From sequence record OR515477.1: a stretch of DNA of 64,000 nucleotides; one strand, written 5' to 3'. The notes under the pieces were generated by a model. It did no database searches. It had not been told where the DNA came from and saw nothing but the letters and a program-made list of their open reading frames with translations. The stretch is from Escherichia phage Es2. The position numbers were made by a program, and so were the translations under genes. This document shows positions 40,706 to 50,726 of this stretch, piece by piece (positions within the stretch are counted from its first letter, which is position 1; each line of letters opens with the position of its first letter).

Positions 40706-43551
40706 AAAAAATACTAGATAGTGCTAGAAACTACTTAAAAAATAATAGCAGAATAAAAACTGCTAGTCTAATTTCTTTAGAATTACCTGGCTCTACTGGT
40801 ACTAGTACTGCTTTTATTTACTTAACTGACTATTTTAGAGATGTACTATATAATGGTATTTTGTACCAGGCCGGTAAAGTTAAGTCTATTAGCACACATA
40901 AACAAAATAGAGATTTATCTATTGGCAGCCTATCTTTTACTATTACAGGTACAGCGCAGGATGAAGTACTGAAATTAGTGCAGAATGGTGTATCTTTTTT
41001 AGACAGATTAGTATCAATTCACCAAGCAATTATTACAGAAGATGGTTCTATTTTATCTGTAGACCCAGACACAAATGGGCCTTTATTATACTTTAGAGGT
41101 AGAATTACTGGTGGAGGTATTAAGGATAATATTAGCACTTCGGGAGTTGGAACCTCCACAATTACTTGGAATTGTTCTAACCAATTCTATGATTTTGATA
41201 GGGTTAATGGTAGATTTACTGATGATGCTTCTCATAGAGGGCTTGAAGTTGTAGCAGGACAATTACTTCCATCTAACGGGGCTAAAAGACTTGAGTACCA
41301 AGAAGACTACGGTTTCTTTCATGCCAATAAAAGTATCTCTATTCTAGCAAAGTATCAGGTACAGGAAGAAAGATACAAACTAAAGTCTAAGAAAAAGCTA
41401 TTTGGACTATCTAGAAGTTATAGTCTTAAAAAGTATTATGAGACTGTTACTAAAGAAGTAGATATAGATTTTAACCTTGCTGCTAAGTATATACCAGTAG
41501 TTTATGGTGTACAGAAAATACCAGGAATACCTATTTTTGCGGATACGGAATTACATAATCCTAACATAGTTTATGTAGTATATGCTTTTGCTGAAGGAGA
41601 GATAGACGGTTTTCTTGACTTTTCCTTTGGGGATAACCCTATGATTTGTATGGACTCTAATGATAGCTCCGCTAGAACCTGCTTTGGTACTAAAAAAGTG
41701 GCTGGGGACACCATGCAAAGAATAGCGTCAGGAACACCTTCTAGTAGTCCTTCCGTTCATGGGCAGGAGTATAAGTATAATGATGGTAATGGTGACATAA
41801 GAATTTGGACGTATCATGGAAAACCTGACCAAACGGCTTCTGAAGTACTAGTAGATATAGCTAAAGAACGTGGGTTCTACCTTCAGAATATGAATGGCAA
41901 TGGACCGGAGTATTGGGATGCTAGGTATAAACTACTAGATACTGCATACGCAGTGGTGCGCTTCACTATTAATGAAAATAGGACTGAGATTCCTGAAGTT
42001 AGTGCTGAAATTCAAGGTAAAAAAGTAAAAGTCTATCATTCTGATGGTAGAGTAACTGCTAATAGTACTAGTTTAAATGGTATTTGGCAAACACTTGATT
42101 ACTTAACCTCTGATAGATATGGCGCTAATATTACCCTTGATCAGTTCCCTCTTCAGCAACTAATACAGGAAGCAGCTATTTTAGATATTATAGATGAATC
42201 CTATCAGGTATCTTGGCAGCCGTATTGGAGATACGTTGGGTGGACTGATCCACTAGCAGAAAATAGACAAATAGTACAAATGAATACTATTCTGGATACA
42301 TCTGAATCAGTATTTAAAAATGTGCAAGGTTTATTAGAGTCCTACGGTGGGGCTATTAACAATTTATCTGGCCAGTATAGAGTTACTGTAGAAAAATACT
42401 CTAATACTCCGCTAGAGATTAATTTTCTAGATACTTACGGTGATTTGGAGCTATCAGATACTACTGGTAGAAATAAATTCAATTCAGTTCAAGCATCTAT
42501 CGTAGATCCCGCCCTTAGTTGGAAAACTAATTCCATTACATTCTATAATTCCAAGTATAAGGAACAGGACAAGAACCTAGATAAAAAATTACAACTGTCT
42601 TTTGCTAATATTACTAATTATTATACTGCAAGAAGTTTTGCTGATAGGGAGCTTAAGAAATCCAGATACTCAAGAACACTCTCTTTCTCATTACCATATC
42701 AATTCATTGGTATTGAACCTAATGATGCTATTGCATTTACATACGACCGTTATGGGTGGGATAAGAAGTATTTCCTAGTAGACGAAGTGGAAAACTCTAG
42801 GGAAGGAAAAATAAATGTTACCCTACAGGAATATGGAGAAGATGTATTTATCAATTCTGAGCAGGTTGATAATAGCGGTAATGATATTCCTGATATTAGT
42901 AATAATGTCCTTCCTCCTAGAGACTTTAAATATACTCCTACTCCTGGCGGTTTAGTAGGCTCTATAGGTAAAAATGGTGAGTTATCTTGGCTTCCGAGTC
43001 TAACCAATAATGTAGTCTATTACTCTATCGTGCATTCCGGTCATGCTGAACCTTATATTGTGCAGCAACTAGAAACAAATCCCAACGAACGGATGATCCA
43101 AGAGATAATTGGAGAGTCTGCAGGTTTAGCAATATTTGAAATAAGGGCTGTGGATATAAACGGTAGAAGAAGTTCTCCAGTAACATTATCTATAGAACTT
43201 AACTCTGCTAAAAACCTAAGTGTAGTATCTAATTTTAGGGTAACTAATACGGCTTCTGGGGATGTAACTGAGTTTGTAGGCCCAGATGTAAAACTAGCTT
43301 GGGATAGAATACCAGAAGAAGATATAATAGAGAGTATATTCTATACTCTGGAGATCTATGATTCCCAGAATAGAATGCTAAGAAGTGTACGTATTGAAAA
43401 TCAGTATACTTATGACTATTTATTAACGTATAATAAGGCAGATTTTGCTCTTCATAACAGTGATGCTCTAGGAATCAATAGAAAACTATATTTTCGTATT
43501 AGAGCAGAAGGAGATGATGGAGAACAGTCTGTGGAGTGGGCATCCATTTAA
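40702..43551 (+). CDS. baseplate hub / tail tip protein, pb3-like
   Basis: 949 aa, same size as T5 pb3 (from memory); position. Confidence 0.65.
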   Translation: MKKILDSARNYLKNNSRIKTASLISLELPGSTGTSTAFIYLTDYFRDVLYNGILYQAGKVKSISTHKQNRDLSIGSLSFTITGTAQDEVLKLVQNGVSFLDRLVSIHQAIITEDGSILSVDPDTNGPLLYFRGRITGGGIKDNISTSGVGTSTITWNCSNQFYDFDRVNGRFTDDASHRGLEVVAGQLLPSNGAKRLEYQEDYGFFHANKSISILAKYQVQEERYKLKSKKKLFGLSRSYSLKKYYETVTKEVDIDFNLAAKYIPVVYGVQKIPGIPIFADTELHNPNIVYVVYAFAEGEIDGFLDFSFGDNPMICMDSNDSSARTCFGTKKVAGDTMQRIASGTPSSSPSVHGQEYKYNDGNGDIRIWTYHGKPDQTASEVLVDIAKERGFYLQNMNGNGPEYWDARYKLLDTAYAVVRFTINENRTEIPEVSAEIQGKKVKVYHSDGRVTANSTSLNGIWQTLDYLTSDRYGANITLDQFPLQQLIQEAAILDIIDESYQVSWQPYWRYVGWTDPLAENRQIVQMNTILDTSESVFKNVQGLLESYGGAINNLSGQYRVTVEKYSNTPLEINFLDTYGDLELSDTTGRNKFNSVQASIVDPALSWKTNSITFYNSKYKEQDKNLDKKLQLSFANITNYYTARSFADRELKKSRYSRTLSFSLPYQFIGIEPNDAIAFTYDRYGWDKKYFLVDEVENSREGKINVTLQEYGEDVFINSEQVDNSGNDIPDISNNVLPPRDFKYTPTPGGLVGSIGKNGELSWLPSLTNNVVYYSIVHSGHAEPYIVQQLETNPNERMIQEIIGESAGLAIFEIRAVDINGRRSSPVTLSIELNSAKNLSVVSNFRVTNTASGDVTEFVGPDVKLAWDRIPEEDIIESIFYTLEIYDSQNRMLRSVRIENQYTYDYLLTYNKADFALHNSDALGINRKLYFRIRAEGDDGEQSVEWASI

Positions 43552-45608
43552 TGATTTCGAATAATGCACCAGCCAAAATGGTCTTAAATAGTATAATGAC
43601 TGGATATACAATGGCATATGTCCAGCACTCTATATATACTGACTATGACGTTATTGGTAGATCTTTTTGGTTAAAGACAGAAGAAAGTATAGATAGACGT
43701 GATTATACTGGTATAGATACTTTCTTCGTAATGATTAATAATCTAACCCCTTCTACCTCCTACGGGGTTCAGGGGGCTTTCTATGACTCAATTATTGACT
43801 CAGAGTTACTGGAAGCTAAGATTGGTATCAACCTCTCTAATGAAACTAACTTTAGAACAAAGGAAAAGCCAATAATTACTGCAGCAAGATCTGAATCAGA
43901 ACCCGTCGACGTGGGTGTTGGTGCTCCAATAGTTGTTGTAGATACTACTGGGGAAGCTAGTTACTGCACTATTGAATTAAAAAGTACTGCATCAGAAGAT
44001 AGTGAATGGGTTAAGTATTATATAGGCGCATTGGGATCTACTATCAAATTTGGTGGTGTTCCGGTTGGCGACTATAAGATCAGAATATCGGGTCAAGTTA
44101 CGATGCCAGATGGTGTTACAGTTGACTCATCTGGTTATTATGAATACCCTAGCGTTTTCACTGTAGCTTATAATTTCGTACCACCTACTGCACCTACTAA
44201 CATTGCCTTTAAAGCTGCACGAATCGCAGACGGTAAGGAACGATATGATGTTAGAATAGAGTGGGACTGGGAACGTGGTGCTGGTGCTAATGTCCGTGAA
44301 TTTCTAGTCACTTATATAAACTCTGAGGAATATGCTAAGACTGGCTGGGCTAAAGCTCAAAAGATAAACGTTGGGGCTGCTAGAGCTGCAACGATCATAT
44401 CATTCCCATGGAAAGTTGAGCATACTTTTAAGGTATCATCAATTGCCTGGGGACCAAATAAGCAAGATATAACAGAATCAGCTCCTGTAACATTTATATT
44501 GAATGAAGATACTCCTCTAGACAACAGCTTTGTCAATGAGACGGGTATTGATGTTAATTATGCCTTTATTAAAGGTAGTATGAAAGATGGAGAAATCTGG
44601 AGGCAGACATTCTTAATCGACGCAGCCACTGGCGCTATTAACATTGGTCTGTTAGATGAAGAAGGAAAAGCACCTATTTCTTTTGACCCTATAAACCGTG
44701 TTGTTAACGTTGATGGGAAAGTAATTACTAGAGATATTAATGCTGCAAACTTTATTATGACTAACTTATCCGGTAAGGATAATCCAGCAATTTACACTCA
44801 AGGTAAATCTTGGGGGGATAATAACTCCGGTATTTGGATGGGCATGGATAATACCTCTGCCAAAGCTAAGTTAGACATTGGTAATGCCACACAGTGGATT
44901 CGTTATGATGGTGATGTGCTACGTATTTCTAGCGGTGTAGTAATTGGAACACCAAATGGTGACGTAGATATTGAAACTGGTTTGCAAGGCAAACAAACCG
45001 TATTTATTTATAAACTTGGTAAAAGTTTGCCAGCAAAACCATTAGAGCAAGATTATCCCCCTCCTGGTTGGTCTAAAACACCGCCTAATCGTACTGATAT
45101 GACTCAGAATATCTATGCTACTACTGGTACTTTAGATCCTGTTACTAATAGATTATTAGAGGGTACTAGCTGGTCTGATGTAGTTCAGTGGAGTGGTACT
45201 GAAGGTACTATAGGGCATGACGGACAACGTGGTCCTGGGATGTACTCCTTAGGCATACCTGGTCTTGGGGGCTGGGATGATGGACAAGCTAATTCCTTCT
45301 TCCAGAATAACTTTGGTAGTCCCCCTGTTAAATATGATGTATTAACTGAATTTAATAGTAATGCCCCACAATCAGCATTTACACGGCAATGGAATGGTTC
45401 TAGTTGGGTTAACCCTGCAATGGTTCTCCACGGAAACATGATTGTTAATGGAACAGTGACGGCAGATAAAATTGTAGCAGGAAATGCTTTCTTGTCTCAA
45501 ATTGGTGTTAATATCATCTATGATAGAAATGCTGCGTTATCCGGGAATCCTGAGGCATACTACAAGATGAAGATAGACCTAAATAGTGGGTATATCCATA
45601 TAAGGTAA
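43536..45608 (+). CDS. tail tip central fibre protein, pb4-like
   Basis: 690 aa; position after hub. Confidence 0.55.
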   Translation: MGIHLMISNNAPAKMVLNSIMTGYTMAYVQHSIYTDYDVIGRSFWLKTEESIDRRDYTGIDTFFVMINNLTPSTSYGVQGAFYDSIIDSELLEAKIGINLSNETNFRTKEKPIITAARSESEPVDVGVGAPIVVVDTTGEASYCTIELKSTASEDSEWVKYYIGALGSTIKFGGVPVGDYKIRISGQVTMPDGVTVDSSGYYEYPSVFTVAYNFVPPTAPTNIAFKAARIADGKERYDVRIEWDWERGAGANVREFLVTYINSEEYAKTGWAKAQKINVGAARAATIISFPWKVEHTFKVSSIAWGPNKQDITESAPVTFILNEDTPLDNSFVNETGIDVNYAFIKGSMKDGEIWRQTFLIDAATGAINIGLLDEEGKAPISFDPINRVVNVDGKVITRDINAANFIMTNLSGKDNPAIYTQGKSWGDNNSGIWMGMDNTSAKAKLDIGNATQWIRYDGDVLRISSGVVIGTPNGDVDIETGLQGKQTVFIYKLGKSLPAKPLEQDYPPPGWSKTPPNRTDMTQNIYATTGTLDPVTNRLLEGTSWSDVVQWSGTEGTIGHDGQRGPGMYSLGIPGLGGWDDGQANSFFQNNFGSPPVKYDVLTEFNSNAPQSAFTRQWNGSSWVNPAMVLHGNMIVNGTVTADKIVAGNAFLSQIGVNIIYDRNAALSGNPEAYYKMKIDLNSGYIHIR

Positions 45609-45614
45609 TAAATA

Positions 45615-46037
45615 ATGAGTACTGAAAATAGAGTTATAGACTTAGTAATAGATGAGAAAGTGCCTTATGGTCTACTAATGCAATTCTTAGATGTTGATGA
45701 TAGTACTTATCCCCCTACAAATACCCCTGTTAACTTAACGGGGTATTCTCTAAGGGGTACTATAAAGAATAGCCTTGATGAGACTGCGGAAACTTTAGCA
45801 TCTTTTACTACTAAAATTATTGATGCTGCTCAAGGTGCTATAGCTATAAGTTTACCCATAGAAGCGGTAGAGAATATTGGTGAAAAAGCCACCAAAGAAA
45901 GAGATAGATATAACCCTCGTCAGCGATTCGCAGGATACTATGATATAATTATGACTAGAGATGTTATAGGATCTGCAATTAGCTCCTTTCGTATAATGGA
46001 GGGTAAAGTATTTATCAGTGATGGGGTAACTAAATAA
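45615..46037 (+). CDS. tail collar protein, p132-like
   Basis: 140 aa between pb4-like and tail fibre genes. Confidence 0.45.
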
Positions 46038-48391
46038 TGGCAGTAACTACTAAAATTATCGTACAGCAGATATTAAATATTGATGATACTAAAGCTACTG
46101 CTAGTAAATTTCCTAGATATACAGTAACTCTAGGTAATTCTATTAGCTCTATTACTGCAAGTGAGTTAGTATCTTCTATTGAGGCAGCAGCTAAGTCTGC
46201 TGCAGCTGCAAAAGATTCTGAGATAGCGGCTAAAACTTCGGAGCTTAACGCTAAGAACTCTGAACAGGAAGCTGCTATTTCTGCTGGAGCTTCTGAAGCT
46301 TCTGCTACTCAGTCTGCTACCTCTGCTACTCAGTCTGCCACTTCTGCTACTAAATCTGCAGAATCAGCTGCAGCTGCAAAAACCTCTGAAACCAATGCTA
46401 AGTCTAGTGAAACAAAAGCTAAAACCTCCGAGACTAATGCAAAAACTAGTGAAACTAATGCAAAGTCTAGTGAAATCAAAGCTAAGGCCTCCGAGACTAA
46501 TGCTAAGGCTAGTGAAACTAATGCTGCTGCTTCGGCTGCAGCGGCAAAACTTAGTGAGGATAATGCAAAAATCAGTGAGACTAATGCTGCTGCATCCGCT
46601 GCGGATTCCAGTGGTTTTAGGAATGAGGCGGAAACATTCTCTACACAAGCTGCCACATCAGCTTCTGCTGCAAAAACCTCCGAAACAAAGGCTAAAACTA
46701 GCGAAACTAATGCAAAAGCTAGTGAGACTAAAGCCAAAGCTAGTGAGACTAACGCAGCTAGTTCCGCAACTTCAGCTAGTCAGTCAGTAACTACTATTCA
46801 AGGCTTAAAATCAGATGTTGAGCAGCTAAAATCAGATACTCAGGCCATTAAAAACAGTGCTGTAACAGAGACAACAGCTATAAAGGCAGATGTTGCGCAG
46901 TTAAAAACGGATACACAAGGTATTAAAGATAGCGCGGTAGCTGAGACAACAACTTTAAAAAACCAAGCTGCAACTTCTGCAACTAATGCTGCTAATTCTG
47001 CAGCAGAAGCGGGGAGACAGGCTACTGCTGCTGCTAATAGTACTAATACTGCTAAAACTGAAGCCGATCGTTCAAAAACTGAGGCTGATAGATCAGAAGC
47101 TGCTGCCAATGCTACTCCTGACATTCAGCCTCTTCCAGATGTATGGATACCGTTCAACGATTCACTGGATATGATTACGGGCTTTTCTCCATCTTATAAA
47201 AAGATTGTTATTGGTGACGATGAAATTACGATGCCGGGCGACAAGATTGTTAAATTTAATCGAGCGTCTACTGCAACGTATGTTAATAAGTCTGGCGCGT
47301 TCACAATTGCTGAAATCGATGAACCAAGATTTGAACGTGAAGGTTTGCTTATTGAGGGGCAGAGAACTAATTATCTATTAAACTCAAATAAACCGCAGTC
47401 GTGGCCTATACACTCATCACTAAATAAAGAGTTTAGTAGCGACAATTTTAACTTCAACTATGCAACAGTATCGCCGACTAATGGTATTATAGGGACAACA
47501 GGTGGCTACATGATAATCAATGTTGCCACCAGAGATAGGTTTAATCTACCTAACGGTGAAAGTTTTACTTTTTCTTGTCGTGCAAAAGGTAGCAAGTGCA
47601 GACTCAGAGCGCGTGTAGCTTACGCTGGTGATGGTGGTGCTGATGTTTTTTCGGCAGACGCATACCTTGACTTTGATTCAGTATCGGCTTCAGTAAGCGG
47701 TCAAACCAATCTTATTAGATCAAAAGTTGAACAGCGTGGAGAATGGCTTTATTTTGAAGTGACATACACGGCGGACGCTGATCGCAACGCCATAAACTGT
47801 GCTTTCTTTTTTGCTAACAAGATTAGAGAAGAACCATTTTATGAAGATTCAACGATTACGCTAGCTACATCACAAATTGAGCTTGGCTCCTGCGCATCAT
47901 CGTTTATTGTATCAGGTGGCACTCCAACCACAAGAGCAAGTGACGTTGTGACCATTCCAGCACAAAACAACCTTGCTATTAGGCCATTTACTGTTCTTTG
48001 CGAAGTAAACAAAAATTGGACTACTCCACCAAATGTAGCCCCACGTATATTTGATGTCGGTGGGCACCAGATTGATGATAATTATTTGTCACTTGGGTTT
48101 GTATCAACAGGAAAGCTGGCTGCAAATGTCGGAATGATTCAACCGCAGATTGCTGTTGATGGGGATAAGTTTGTTGTTGGTTTAAGGGCTAAATCAGACT
48201 TATCTGTTAATGCTATATTCAATGGCAATTATACAACTAACCCTAATGGTAAAGAGTTCGGAATCACGGCAACATCGTACCGATTCGGAGGGCAAACTGC
48301 GGCGGGAACTCGTCACTTATTTGGCCATATCCGCAATTTAAGAATCTGGTTTAAAGAGCTAACTGATAGACAAATGAAGGAGTATGTATGA
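46037..48391 (+). CDS. L-shaped tail fibre protein A-like, with tandem repeats and C-terminal LamG/lectin-like domain
   Basis: 784 aa; 7-aa KTSETNA-type repeats; C-terminal GTRHLFGHIRNLRIWFKELTDRQMKEY resembles a concanavalin-A-like lectin domain end motif. Confidence 0.5.
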   Translation: MAVTTKIIVQQILNIDDTKATASKFPRYTVTLGNSISSITASELVSSIEAAAKSAAAAKDSEIAAKTSELNAKNSEQEAAISAGASEASATQSATSATQSATSATKSAESAAAAKTSETNAKSSETKAKTSETNAKTSETNAKSSEIKAKASETNAKASETNAAASAAAAKLSEDNAKISETNAAASAADSSGFRNEAETFSTQAATSASAAKTSETKAKTSETNAKASETKAKASETNAASSATSASQSVTTIQGLKSDVEQLKSDTQAIKNSAVTETTAIKADVAQLKTDTQGIKDSAVAETTTLKNQAATSATNAANSAAEAGRQATAAANSTNTAKTEADRSKTEADRSEAAANATPDIQPLPDVWIPFNDSLDMITGFSPSYKKIVIGDDEITMPGDKIVKFNRASTATYVNKSGAFTIAEIDEPRFEREGLLIEGQRTNYLLNSNKPQSWPIHSSLNKEFSSDNFNFNYATVSPTNGIIGTTGGYMIINVATRDRFNLPNGESFTFSCRAKGSKCRLRARVAYAGDGGADVFSADAYLDFDSVSASVSGQTNLIRSKVEQRGEWLYFEVTYTADADRNAINCAFFFANKIREEPFYEDSTITLATSQIELGSCASSFIVSGGTPTTRASDVVTIPAQNNLAIRPFTVLCEVNKNWTTPPNVAPRIFDVGGHQIDDNYLSLGFVSTGKLAANVGMIQPQIAVDGDKFVVGLRAKSDLSVNAIFNGNYTTNPNGKEFGITATSYRFGGQTAAGTRHLFGHIRNLRIWFKELTDRQMKEYV
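46300..46770 (+). repeat. in-frame 15-nt and 21-nt tandem codon repeats within tail fibre gene
   Basis: TCTGCTACTCAGTCTGCY units then about 12 AAAACCTCTGAAACYAATGCW-like 21-mers in two blocks. Confidence 0.6.
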
Positions 48392-48666
48392 GAGATATAA
48401 TCCTAAAATTCACGGATAAATCAGCATATAAAGATTTTCTCTTAAAAATAGAGTGGGATACTAATGAAACTTTGCAAAACCAAATAATGCTTGATGAAAT
48501 TGGATATACTTATACTGAAATCTCTCCGCTAGGTGATGATGAGCCTAGATGCATCCGTAATGAGGGGTATTATGTTAATGTAAGGATTCTTGATGAATCC
48601 TTTACTTACGAATACTTTGAGCCTTTTATAGTTCAGCTAGAACAGCCTCTTAGAGAGTGGGCATAA
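48388..48666 (+). CDS. hypothetical protein (92 aa) between the fibre genes
   Basis: ORF with ATGA overlap to upstream gene. Confidence 0.35.
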   Translation: MRDIILKFTDKSAYKDFLLKIEWDTNETLQNQIMLDEIGYTYTEISPLGDDEPRCIRNEGYYVNVRILDESFTYEYFEPFIVQLEQPLREWA

Positions 48667-48675
48667 GGTTTTATA

Positions 48676-50421
48676 ATGGTAACTAAAACAGTAATTCCTA
48701 CGGATATTACAAAACTTAAAAACGAGTCACTTAATAAGAATAATAACCTGAGTGACTTAGCAGACCGTGCAGCAGCATGGCTAAATGTGCGTCCTATTGG
48801 ATCCACCCCTCTTGCGGGGGATCCTGTTGGGGACTATGATGCCGCAACTAAACGTTGGGTAGAGAATAAGATTAACACTGGTACAGTTGGACCCACTATG
48901 AATGGTGTTATGAACTACGGTGTTGGTGATTTTCACCTCCGAGATAGTCGTGCATATATTCAACCATACGAAGTCGTTTCTGACGGACAGCTTCTTAATA
49001 GGGCTGACTGGCCTGAGCTTTGGGCTTATGCTCAGATGGTTGGGCTTATAGAGGATTCCGTCTGGTTAGCGGATAAATTCCAGCGTGGTAAATACTCATC
49101 AGGAGATGGAACAACAACTTTTCGTGTTCCAGATAGGAATGGGGTACAGCAAGGGTCAATACGTGCTCTTTATGGTCGTGGTGATGGCGGTATGTCCGAC
49201 GCTAACGGTCGTGCTTTTGAATCCGCTGCACCGAATATTACAGGTGCTGTTCCTAGCTACTCAGGAGGTATGTATGCTCAGGTATTCGGTTCTGCTGCTA
49301 GAGGTGCATTCTTTTCTGATAATATGCTTTTTCCTAACGGGGATGGGGATGTCATCCCTGCAGGTAAGACACCGCTTACTGGCCGTTGTAACACGCTAAA
49401 TTTTGACGCCTCACGTTCAAGTCCAATTTACGGAGCATCAAATGATGAGATTCTTACACGAAATTTTGTAGGTGTATGGGTGATTCGTGCATCTGGTGGT
49501 TTCGTTGCAGCAAATACATCATGGAGTGTTATTAACGGCGATGCGACCAGACCGATAGACGGCACAAGAGTTGAATCAGGGAAAGTAAGCGTAGAATATA
49601 AGATTGGAACGGCTATTGAGGCGCAGGGTAATGTCTATACTGCTGCAACAATGGGTGGGGCATATTCTACCCAGCTCTCTGTTAAAAATGCCACTACGGG
49701 CAAAGAGAAAGATATCAGCGTCACAGAAGATGGTGATCTGTGGTCCGACCGCTTTAAGGCTAGATTTGGCACCCGTATGGCTTGGGCTCAGACCGGCTGG
49801 GCCTATGGCACATTTTCCCAAGCCAACCAATCCATCGGTAACGACTACAATTTCTACAGTATTCTTAGCGGCTCCCAAAGTTCAAGCACGGGCTATAAAA
49901 CTCATACCCATATTGGTCAAATCCACAATGACAACGGTTCATTTGCTGATAGCTGCTGGCATGTTGCAGGTGATGATGATAACAAATATGGTGTACGTTT
50001 AAAAATTCAGCCTAATAATAATAGTATTTATTTCTATTCTTGGTGGCCTGGTGCTTCAGCAGTCTATACTTTGCAATTAAATGCTGTATCTGATTCTCGC
50101 TTAAAGCATGATATTAAGGCTATAGACGCAACTAAGTCCATCGAGGTATTAAAAGGATTAGAATTCCAATCCTTTGTATATAATAACGATGAAAAATCTC
50201 GCGTCCGACGTGGGGTTATTGCTCAGCAAGTAGAGACTATAGAACCACTTTATGTAAAAACTAGAAGATTTTATAATAATGATGGGGTGGAGCAAGAACA
50301 GAAGGAATTAGATACGACTCCAATGCTTCTTGACACTATGCATGTCGTGCAAGAACTTATAAAACGGATTGAATCTTTGGAAGAAGAACTCAAACAATTA
50401 AAAGTACAATTAGTACAGTAA
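48676..50421 (+). CDS. tail fibre protein B-like, with phage tail collar domain and C-terminal S74 intramolecular chaperone domain
   Basis: 581 aa; N-terminal QLLNRADWPELWAY...GDGTTTFRVPD collar-type motif; C-terminal SDSRLKHDI autoproteolysis-type motif. Confidence 0.55.
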   Translation: MVTKTVIPTDITKLKNESLNKNNNLSDLADRAAAWLNVRPIGSTPLAGDPVGDYDAATKRWVENKINTGTVGPTMNGVMNYGVGDFHLRDSRAYIQPYEVVSDGQLLNRADWPELWAYAQMVGLIEDSVWLADKFQRGKYSSGDGTTTFRVPDRNGVQQGSIRALYGRGDGGMSDANGRAFESAAPNITGAVPSYSGGMYAQVFGSAARGAFFSDNMLFPNGDGDVIPAGKTPLTGRCNTLNFDASRSSPIYGASNDEILTRNFVGVWVIRASGGFVAANTSWSVINGDATRPIDGTRVESGKVSVEYKIGTAIEAQGNVYTAATMGGAYSTQLSVKNATTGKEKDISVTEDGDLWSDRFKARFGTRMAWAQTGWAYGTFSQANQSIGNDYNFYSILSGSQSSSTGYKTHTHIGQIHNDNGSFADSCWHVAGDDDNKYGVRLKIQPNNNSIYFYSWWPGASAVYTLQLNAVSDSRLKHDIKAIDATKSIEVLKGLEFQSFVYNNDEKSRVRRGVIAQQVETIEPLYVKTRRFYNNDGVEQEQKELDTTPMLLDTMHVVQELIKRIESLEEELKQLKVQLVQ

Positions 50422-50428
50422 TAAAAGA

Positions 50429-50463
50429 AAACCCCAGTGGACAAAATCCACTGGGGTTTTATT
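50429..50463. terminator. bidirectional rho-independent terminator at convergence of late and replication modules
   Basis: CCCCAGTGG-acaaaat-CCACTGGGG flanked by A-run and T-run. Confidence 0.65.
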
Positions 50464-50465
50464 AC

Positions 50466-50726
50466 TTATTTACTGCCTTCTATAATACCAAGATTATAAA
50501 TGGCTAAAAGGAATTTTAAATGCTCATTGTCACTATTAGTGCAAAGTTCTATAAAACCTTCAGGATCCCAAAAAGTAACATTACCTTCTTTATCTGTTTT
50601 CAGCACAAACTTTTCGGATTCAGTGGTTTTAATCTGATAAGTAGACATATTGGTATTAACAATACCTACCATACTAGGGTTAGTAAAATTATTTGTTTCC
50701 TGAACTTCCAAATCCACCTTCTCCAC
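50466..50726 (-). CDS. hypothetical protein (86 aa)
   Basis: ORF downstream of dUTPase gene. Confidence 0.4.
   Translation of the reverse strand: MEKVDLEVQETNNFTNPSMVGIVNTNMSTYQIKTTESEKFVLKTDKEGNVTFWDPEGFIELCTNSDNEHLKFLLAIYNLGIIEGSK

Follow-up and report, generated by a model that had tools for sequence, protein, structure and literature searches.

A probable proximal-plus-distal lateral tail-fibre operon in the T5-like Escherichia phage Es2

Results

Gene order and features of the locus

The window analysed here is a stretch of 64,000 nucleotides from Escherichia phage Es2 (OR515477.1), a Tequintavirus; the genes of the locus under study encode the side fibres of this T5-like coliphage. Positions 46037-50421 hold three open reading frames of 784, 92 and 581 aa, all on the plus strand and exactly where a first-pass annotation of the sequence had placed them, flanked by ltfC and a bidirectional terminator. 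The order along the operon is pb4-ltfC-P784-P92-P581 followed by the terminator, with the following features.

45615..46037, plus strand: ltfC, context gene, collar protein that fixes the lateral fibres to the tail tip (Pfam PF23926)
46037-48391, plus strand: P784, ORF of 784 aa
46145..47128, plus strand: P784 aa 37-364, trimeric coiled-coil shaft (heptad register, TRF, LtfA analogy)
46037..46144, plus strand: P784 aa 1-36, N-terminal anchor strands inserting into the LtfC ring (similarity to DT57C LtfA, T5 pb1 and 8HQZ)
47129..47368, plus strand: P784 aa 365-444, "neck", candidate trimer junction and docking region (conservation profile, invariant residues)
47369..47893, plus strand: P784 aa 445-619, variable β-sandwich 1 (GTA head-spike-fibre type, ConA-like fold)
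47894..48388, plus strand: P784 aa 620-784, β-sandwich 2, LamG-like (AF2, sub-threshold Pfam)
48388-48666, plus strand: P92, ORF of 92 aa, conserved acidic protein (11.1 kDa, pI 4.25)
48676-50421, plus strand: P581, ORF of 581 aa
48676..48729, plus strand: P581 aa 1-18, MVTKTVIPTDITKLKNES, N-terminal motif, candidate docking peptide (motif recurrence)
48730..50088, plus strand: P581 aa 19-471, predicted mature distal fibre
50089..50418, plus strand: P581 aa 472-581, S74 intramolecular chaperone domain (Pfam PF13884)
50428..50460, no strand assigned: bidirectional intrinsic terminator with a 15-bp stem, end of the tail-fibre operon

The ltfC product matches the LtfC family PF23926 (E 7e-14) and is 94% identical to gp21 of phage IrisVonRoten; the role of LtfC as the lateral-fibre collar comes from the cryo-EM structure of DT57C (PMC10713586). 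The ltfC stop overlaps the start of P784 (TAATG), and the P784 stop in turn overlaps the start of P92 (ATGA). At the position equivalent to 50428..50460 the T5 annotation carries an "efficient bidirectional terminator".

Anchor and shaft of P784

Residues 1-205 of P784 share 55% identity with DT57C LtfA and 53% with T5 pb1, and the N-terminus matches chain d of PDB 8HQZ (E 1e-37). On this homology P784 is predicted to trimerise, its first ~36 residues locking into the tail-tip collar formed by LtfC. The heptad register is continuous from aa 37 to about 364 (about 47 heptads), with Ala at position 1 in 27/47 and Ser at position 4 in 29/47. The three-helix coiled coil of DT57C LtfA starts at T40 in the DT57C structure (PMC10713586), and by homology residues 37-364 of P784 form an Ala/Ser-core three-helix coiled coil with a length of about 49 nm if fully helical.

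Within the shaft, KTSETNA heptads are arrayed at aa 114-183 and again at aa 212-239, a 25-aa unit occurs twice at aa 260-309, and TEADRSK is present in two copies at aa 340-353. The in-frame 21-nt repeats coding for KTSETNA-type heptads, described in the first-pass annotation, are present: 16 heptads conform to A[KA]xSExx, the self-match of the DNA at lag 21 is 0.48 against a background of about 0.33, and the periods that TRF detects are 21 nt, 63 nt (2.4 copies, 86% match) and 75 nt, with shorter periods of 9 and 12 nt inside the 21-nt unit. The 15-nt tandem repeats claimed beside them are absent from the shaft DNA, where the self-match at lag 15 (0.36) equals background, and the two repeats put at ~20 aa do exist but with a unit of 25 aa (75 nt, 78% match by TRF). 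The suggested comparison of repeat copy number reveals polymorphism among relatives, whose shafts differ in length by entire 7-aa and 25-aa units; one relative with a 99%-identical shaft has a clean deletion of 14 heptads. The number of heptads and 25-aa repeats sets the shaft length, and recombination between repeat units probably changes their copy number.

Neck and lectin-like C-terminus of P784

By homology or fold, two ConA-like β-sandwiches, preceded by a conserved neck, form the end of the chain. The neck is the most conserved segment within the aligned aa 355-784 (column conservation 0.79-0.98); in a monomer model its pLDDT stays below 50. The lectin-like character proposed earlier for the C-terminus is borne out by the fold prediction, a ConA-like jelly-roll β-sandwich, together with a match to NCBIfam NF048003. 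The RcGTA head-spike fibre protein, namesake of that family, binds capsular polysaccharide (PMC10218006), and β-sandwich 1 is a candidate glycan-binding domain. In β-sandwich 2 (AF2 pLDDT 50-75) a conserved frame, which includes the C-terminal strand ...RHLFGHIRNLRIWFKELTDRQMKEYV, carries variable loops at aa 675-745; Laminin_G_3 (PF13385) aligns to aa 628-784 with E 0.031 and 14.9 bits, below the cut-off of 27.6, and two homologues (P0019 and P0057) come near that threshold with 26.8-27.5 bits. The Pfam search of P784 found no S74 domain and no RBD of the LtfA type.

P92

P92 ends in an invariant PLREWA tail. It has no match to any Pfam family and therefore none to the tail-fibre-assembly chaperone families of Pfam; a comparison with tail-fibre assembly chaperones of the lambda Tfa / Caudo_TAP type gave no sequence-family or fold match either. 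Its identity among homologues tracks that of the distal-fibre N-terminus (Spearman 0.63, vs 0.29 for the proximal C-terminus), and phage 21 retains P92 though it has no distal fibre gene. P92 is unreported in the virion proteome of phage SIA3lw, which covers a gel range of 19-132 kDa only. It probably acts at the joint between P784 and P581, as a structural adaptor or an assembly factor.

P581

By homology or fold, P581 is a separate trimeric distal fibre in which a conserved stem precedes the variable receptor-binding part and an S74 domain lies at the C-terminus. Its N-terminal motif, M-x-T-x-T-x-I-P-x-D-I-x-x-L-K, is common to distal fibres, 151-586 aa long, that are otherwise unrelated and come from T5-like, Nonagvirus, Drexlerviridae and prophage loci. 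Residues 19-160 are stem/collar-like and conserved, with near identity to DT57C LtfA 526-670, and are followed at aa ~160-400 by variable receptor-binding sequence; the equivalent region in the IrisVonRoten model comprises a Gp12-like RBD1 and a T5-like RBD2 (PMC11990801). The tail-collar motif attributed to P581 falls under the Pfam threshold (Collar PF07484, E 0.035, 14.5 bits, cut-off 24), reaching E <= 0.01 in only 4 of 32 homologues, and a PDB profile search with P581 returned no gp12 or pb1 match.

The S74 chaperone with its SDSRLKHDI site, on the other hand, was correctly recognised: PF13884 matches aa 472-524 (E 3.9e-12, 46.7 bits, cut-off 22) and all 32 homologues, among which the Ser472/Lys477 pair of the cleavage site, with a spacing of five residues, is invariant. 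Relatives of the domain in the PDB are 6F45, 7DC3 and 3GUD, and the motif VSDSRLKHDI of P581 resembles TSDARLKNDV of T5 pb1. The domain would fold the P581 trimer and then cut itself off before Ser472, a cleavage predicted to convert the 63.8-kDa precursor into a mature fibre of 50.9 kDa and a fragment of 12.9 kDa.

Discussion

The correct published counterpart of the Es2 fibre is the Gp22/Gp24 fibre of phage IrisVonRoten (Bas32), in which Gp22 is a proximal fibre with a lectin-like domain and Gp24 a "T-shaped" distal fibre (Humolli et al., PLoS Biol 2025, PMC11990801). Gp22, gp23 and Gp24 (796, 92 and 574 aa) follow the same gene order as P784, P92 and P581, which are 67%, 93% and 75% identical to them in amino-acid sequence, the frame being conserved between P581 and Gp24. 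Es2 thus presents, in synteny with ltfC, the ~790-aa fibre, the 92-aa ORF and the ~580-aa S74 fibre of the IrisVonRoten type, with a galectin/ConA-like β-sandwich at the end of the proximal fibre. Both phages share the neck, the P581 N-terminus, the IMC and the shaft length, without any indel; they diverge in the lectin-like domains (aa ~445-745) and in the receptor-binding core of P581 (aa ~160-400), and therefore the receptor specificity of Es2 is probably unlike that of IrisVonRoten. We consider it likely that the locus is a lateral (L-shaped) tail-fibre operon of the same proximal-plus-distal format. Since a close relative already has a published description of such a layout, that of Es2 is real but largely ordinary.

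The evidence also supports the earlier view of a two-protein fibre instead of one Ltf of the T5 type. T5 pb1 (Ltf), put at ~1400 aa in the first-pass annotation, has 1396 aa; its operon position is as in Es2, with a bidirectional terminator 3' in both, and its N-terminal 205 aa resemble those of P784, KTSETNA heptads included. However, pb1 is a single polypeptide whose middle and receptor-binding parts bear no sequence relation to Es2.

Because P581 itself carries no virion anchor, we infer that it would dock on the distal end of P784 via its N-terminal TxIPxDI peptide, an attachment that follows from the published prediction for the homologue and from gene-context logic. With P581 so docked, the lectin-like domains of P784 together with RBD1 and RBD2 of P581 would provide up to three candidate glycan-binding surfaces, in keeping with the plural glycan-binding tips suggested by the first-pass annotation; these surfaces may bind O-antigen reversibly before pb5 engages the outer-membrane receptor. 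Both fibre proteins of SIA3lw, 63% and 82% identical to P784 and P581, were found in its virions by mass spectrometry.

An unlikely alternative to this docking is that P784 and P92, the latter as a Tfa-like chaperone or tip protein, make one lectin-tipped fibre and that P581 sits separately on the tail tip. Phage 21, a viable lambdoid phage, does carry the proximal fibre and P92 without a distal fibre gene, as do many E. coli prophages, and P92 occupies the position of tfa in lambda, but P92 lacks any chaperone-family match and P581 any recognisable anchor domain, while stand-alone forms of the P581 cassette carry added N-terminal anchors (707-790 aa, or phage_tail_N fusions). Furthermore, TxIPxDI fibres come after P92 in T5-like, Nonagvirus, T1-like and lambdoid phages despite their unrelated tails, and therefore their partner lies inside the module.

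Less probable still is the branched LtfA/LtfB organisation of DT57C and DT571/2 (Golomidova et al. 2016, PMC4728585; Ayala et al. 2023, PMC10713586; PDB 8HQZ), which the locus had been said to match and in which P784 would make up an entire LtfA-like fibre bearing P581 as an LtfB-like branch on a mid-shaft domain. DT57C likewise has two fibre genes downstream of ltfC, its LtfC collar and the LtfA-type anchor and coiled-coil start are shared with Es2 (55% over 205 aa), and the stem/RBD/IMC cassette of P581 is 45% identical both to LtfA 511-1073 and to LtfB 206-785. However, the phiEco32 gp14/gp15-like docking pair is missing in Es2: LtfA 223-471, the gp14-like proposed dock for LtfB, has no counterpart in P784, where significant BLASTP alignment ends at LtfA ~226, and P581 lacks the N-terminal 205 aa of LtfB, including the gp15-like 45 aa, its own N-terminus (MVTKTVIPTDIT...) being unrelated to that of LtfB (MSRPLMPKSGAM...). 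P784 ends in ConA-like sandwiches, whereas LtfA ends in an RBD plus IMC, and the 92-aa gene between the fibre genes is extra relative to DT57C. The distal half of LtfA (511-1073) is matched by P581 from residue 3 onwards, which speaks for a serial fibre split in two and not for a side branch.

That a single T5-type fibre gene was split by an assembly frameshift or stop is scarcely credible, even if P92 and P581 share a frame with TAA plus 9 nt between them and one GenBank version of mar004NP2 has its distal gene broken into three ORFs, given that the three ORFs are laid out identically, ATGA overlap included, in about 40 independent loci of several phage families, that the spacer between P92 and the distal gene is 2, 9, 10 or 12 nt, so the two are not always in frame, that exact protein matches occur in GenBank phage Es2 and other assemblies, and that the two large fibre proteins of SIA3lw virions run as separate bands.

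The proximal-plus-distal fibre of Es2 is alike in principle to the long tail fibre of T4 (gp34 proximal, gp35/gp36 joint, gp37 distal), in that the proximal rod, the small joint protein(s) and the receptor-binding distal rod come from consecutive genes. The joint components of T4 and Es2 showed no relationship in sequence or fold, and the joint role of P92 in Es2 is putative.

T5-like, Nonagvirus, Drexlerviridae and lambdoid phages all have the module formed by the proximal C-terminus, P92 and the TxIPxDI fibre, although the virion anchors that precede it differ. In phage 21 and E. coli prophages, JenP2 and tunzivis, the neck and ConA-like C-terminal region are 69-80% identical to those of Es2 and are followed by the 92-aa ORF with the same 4-nt overlap. 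JenP2 and tunzivis (Drexlerviridae) also have a distal fibre with the TxIPxDI start, unrelated to P581 past about residue 20, whereas phage 21 has none; the anchors in this group are of the phage_tail_N type and that of Es2 is of the T5 Ltf type. Beyond the literature, the P92 ORF and the TxIPxDI motif of the distal fibre occur in each of the families that were sampled in detail (T5-like, Nonagvirus, T1-like and lambdoid). The Es2 locus is itself a mosaic, with a shaft like that of IrisVonRoten and a lectin cassette, unlike that of IrisVonRoten, that is 93% identical in DNA to Nonagvirus JenP2 (47250-48391). The receptor-binding segments of P581 resemble those of other T5-like phages, nt 49100-49530 being 83% identical to IME178 and nt 49470-49950 95% identical to SIA3lw.

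Organisation of the fibre operon

The three co-oriented fibre reading frames of the first-pass annotation coincide exactly with those of the ORF listing, and lie among the following features:

43536-45608, upstream of the fibre genes: pb4, straight-fibre gene (four PB4 Pfam domains)
45615-46037, upstream, adjoining the P784 gene: ltfC, collar gene (Pfam LtfC)
46037-48391, + strand: gene of P784, the 784-aa proximal fibre protein
48388-48666, + strand: gene of P92, a 92-aa acidic protein
48676-50421, + strand: gene of P581, the 581-aa distal fibre protein
50428-50460: strong bidirectional intrinsic terminator with a 15-bp stem, ending the fibre operon
50466-50726, - strand: 86-aa ORF overlapping the end of the dUTPase gene

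The junctions ltfC/P784 and P784/P92 are TAATG and ATGA, respectively, and 9 nt separate P92 from P581; the gene starts in ltfC-P784-P92-P581 are tightly coupled. Beyond the terminator, an equivalent of which is annotated in T5, the dUTPase and flap-endonuclease genes are convergent with the fibre operon. P784 and P581 match "tail fiber" proteins of Escherichia phage Es2 at 100% identity. An in-frame read-through from P92 into P581 was ruled out, since the spacer measures 2, 9, 10 or 12 nt in relatives. The distal fibre gene of mar004NP2 (locus L002, OR896837, 5780-7552) is broken into three ORFs in that GenBank version, and an intact 589-aa distal fibre (P0264) is deposited under the same name too; the split is probably due to sequencing frameshifts or a laboratory pseudogene. 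The 86-aa ORF has a counterpart with Pfam DUF7369 in locus L009, and its position resembles that of T5.132.

Relationship to published fibres

The fibre feature is real and correctly placed; its reading needs one correction, namely that it is of the IrisVonRoten type and not of the DT57C type. The branched LtfA/LtfB model of DT57C was based on two resemblances to phiEco32, that of LtfA 223-471 to gp14 and that of the LtfB N-terminus to gp15 (PMC4728585), and DT57C bears a receptor-binding domain (RBD) and a chaperone domain on LtfA and LtfB alike. None of these defining features is found in the right place in Es2, so that the match to this organisation proposed from the sequence alone is not upheld. 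In the Tequintavirus IrisVonRoten (Bas32), the nearest phage in the collection compared, Gp22 is predicted to be a proximal fibre whose C-terminus bears an additional, galectin-like domain, and Gp24 a "T-shaped" distal fibre joined to Gp22, with a Gp12-like RBD1, a T5-like RBD2 and an intramolecular chaperone (Humolli et al. 2025, PMC11990801); nothing specific is said there of the 92-aa gene. IrisVonRoten Gp22, gp23 and Gp24 show 67%, 93% and 75% identity to P784, P92 and P581, and the divergence falls exactly at the lectin block and the receptor-binding core. The proximal fibre is called Gp22 in the Fig 12 legend of PMC11990801 and Gp23 in its main text; the GenBank locus tags assign bas32_0022 to the 796-aa fibre and bas32_0023 to the 92-aa ORF. 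In SIA3lw, the homologues of P784 and P581 are both virion proteins by mass spectrometry.

The shaft and its repeats

In P784 a single heptad register runs from residue 37 to about 364, with mostly Ala at position 1 and mostly Ser at position 4, and 16 units fit the pattern A[KA]xSExx. LtfA of DT57C, 55% identical to P784 across residues 1-205, forms an Ala/Ser-core trimeric coiled coil from residue T40 by cryo-EM (PMC10713586), and by homology the P784 shaft is a coiled coil of this kind. T5 pb1 (1396 aa) has its N-terminus in common with P784, KTSETNA heptads included. Thus, the repeats, described earlier as hypervariable-looking, make up the T5 lateral fibre's ancestral stalk and not a variable tip. 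At the DNA level the 21-nt in-frame tandem repeats were confirmed, with a self-match at lag 21 of 0.48 over a background of about 0.33; TRF placed repeats of 21, 63 and 75 nt in frame, those of 63 nt in 2.4 copies with 86% match and those of 75 nt in 2 copies with 78% match. The 15-nt repeat also claimed is absent by both autocorrelation and TRF, lag 15 being at background.

Repeat copy number, which it had been suggested to compare, is polymorphic among relatives. In 50 distinct T5-type homologues, where counts refer to sequences and not to independent events, shaft indels are nearly all of whole units: 7 aa in 27 cases, 25 aa in 22 cases leading to 1, 2 or 3 copies, and longer ones of 14, 98, 105 and 112 aa. 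What departs from this is chiefly a 3-aa indel, present at one site in 16 cases, along with single 1-aa and 18-aa indels. We take as the decisive case the homologue P0041, the shaft of which is 99% identical to that of Es2 but shorter by exactly 98 aa (14 heptads), with the deletion junction within an AAKTSET stretch common to both KTSETNA arrays. The idea of a repeat hotspot is therefore supported for recombination between repeat units, and the Es2 locus and its relatives provide clear natural evidence that such recombination alters stalk length. IrisVonRoten has the same copy number as Es2.

Neck and lectin-like domains of P784

Among 49 homologues the neck (residues 365-444) is near-invariant. 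Two variable blocks come after it, at 445-612 and 675-745, with a conserved linker between them, and the end is again conserved. AlphaFold2 (AF2) predicts a confident beta-sandwich at residues 444-619 (pLDDT ~90) and a moderate one at 639-784; the neck is modelled poorly, as would be anticipated when a trimer interface is predicted from a single chain.

Fold matches of the P784 C-terminal half (score)
Pseudomonas phage Pa193 baseplate protein gp46: 16.5
Botulinum toxin Hc: 14.5
Sialic-acid-binding CBM40: 14.4
Pentraxins: ~12.9
LamG / neurexin: ~10
CBM4: ~10

All the tabulated matches have the ConA-like lectin/glucanase fold. NCBIfam NF048003 (GTA head-spike fibre domain) is above cut-off on residues 438-634, and the RcGTA head-spike fibre protein from which it takes its name binds capsular polysaccharide (PMC10218006); Pfam Laminin_G_3 is sub-threshold in P784 and near threshold in homologues. 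The predicted models and NF048003 support the proposed lectin-like C-terminus as a statement about fold.

The distal fibre P581

P581 aligns with DT57C LtfA 511-1073, the distal half, from its own third residue onwards, and with LtfB 206-785; its first ~150 residues are nearly identical to both. The C-terminal end is an S74-type chaperone, as had been recognised, with Ser472 and Lys477 invariant in 32 homologues. A conserved Ser of T5 pb1, which we take from the pb1 structures to mark the cleavage position, aligns with Ser472, and self-cleavage before Ser472 would give a mature P581 of 50.9 kDa. The tail-collar motif also attributed to P581 is reduced to a weak Pfam match, and a sequence-profile search of the PDB with P581 recovered neither T4 gp12 nor T5 pb1.

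P92 and a possible portable joint

Homologues of P92 were found in 183 phage records, among which the small gene g124 of phiR2-01 is absent; Pfam and fold searches gave neither a family nor a diagnostic fold. A profile search of 1.8 billion representatives retrieved small phage and prophage proteins, together with weak multi-repeat matches to PKD-repeat giants (P0165, P0167 and P0194), where residues 4-78 align to single PKD-type repeats (VEIDWGDG...THQYLDDNPTGTP.D.Y.V.VRV.DDDG) at ~15 bits per repeat. None of the Pfam PKD models matches P92, and AF2 places helices in this same region. The virion proteomics consulted for P92 had a gel lower limit of 19 kDa in SIA3lw and identified just four bands in AKFV33.

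P92 may be either a structural adaptor or an assembly factor. Its identity follows that of the distal fibre N-terminus (Spearman 0.63) more than that of the equally adjacent proximal C-terminus (0.29), which points to an adaptor but is only suggestive because the loci are not independent. The presence of P92 in phage 21 and many prophages where the distal fibre gene is absent favours a partner located on the proximal fibre. In phage 21 (L095, OL657228, 1944-8126; also L006-L008) and many E. coli prophages, a 97-aa membrane ORF and sitABCD, an iron/manganese transporter, come after the genes of the side tail fibre and the P92 homologue, as cargo at the site that the distal fibre gene occupies in other phages.

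The layout does not vary over 40 IMG/VR loci and further contigs: the proximal fibre ends in ...HLFGHxRNxRIWxKxLTDxQ..., with a 4-nt overlap with P92, which ends in PLREWA, followed by a 2-12 nt spacer. The distal fibre (151-586 aa) starts M-x-T-x-T-x-IP-x-DI-x-x-LK and continues with almost anything. The three-gene module also occurs in JenP2, there with another anchor and another distal fibre, and the P581 cassette occurs elsewhere with other N-terminal anchors, as 707-790-aa forms or a phage_tail_N fusion. Since P581 lacks an anchor and the module functions behind tails that are unrelated to one another, the TxIPxDI peptide of P581 would dock within the module. We advance, as a tentative reading that may well prove wrong, that the conserved neck, P92 with its invariant PLREWA ending and TxIPxDI form a portable plug-and-socket joint common to T5-like, Nonagvirus, T1-like and lambdoid phages, and maybe Dhillonvirus, where the 92-aa homologue is the sole part seen; any distal fibre could then be swapped onto any stalk, and P92 would be a new structural adaptor family, possibly diverged PKD-like, rather than a chaperone. 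P92, which accompanies this kind of joint in many coliphage families, is the single part of the locus that could lead to new ground. Lateral fibres set the O-antigen types open to T5-like phages, so that their modularity bears on how host range is predicted and engineered.

Mosaic origin

In the lectin-domain DNA (47250-48391), identity to Nonagvirus JenP2 is 93%, and similarity to T5-like phages is no more than patchy. One half of the P581 core matches IME178 at 83% identity and the other SIA3lw at 95%. The Es2 locus is a novel combination of known cassettes. Records OR847733 and OR848352 ("Listeria phage") and MG065676 etc. ("Campylobacter phage") also contain fibre sequence of T5-like or rV5-like coliphages, at 95% identity, and are probably mislabelled or contaminated deposits.
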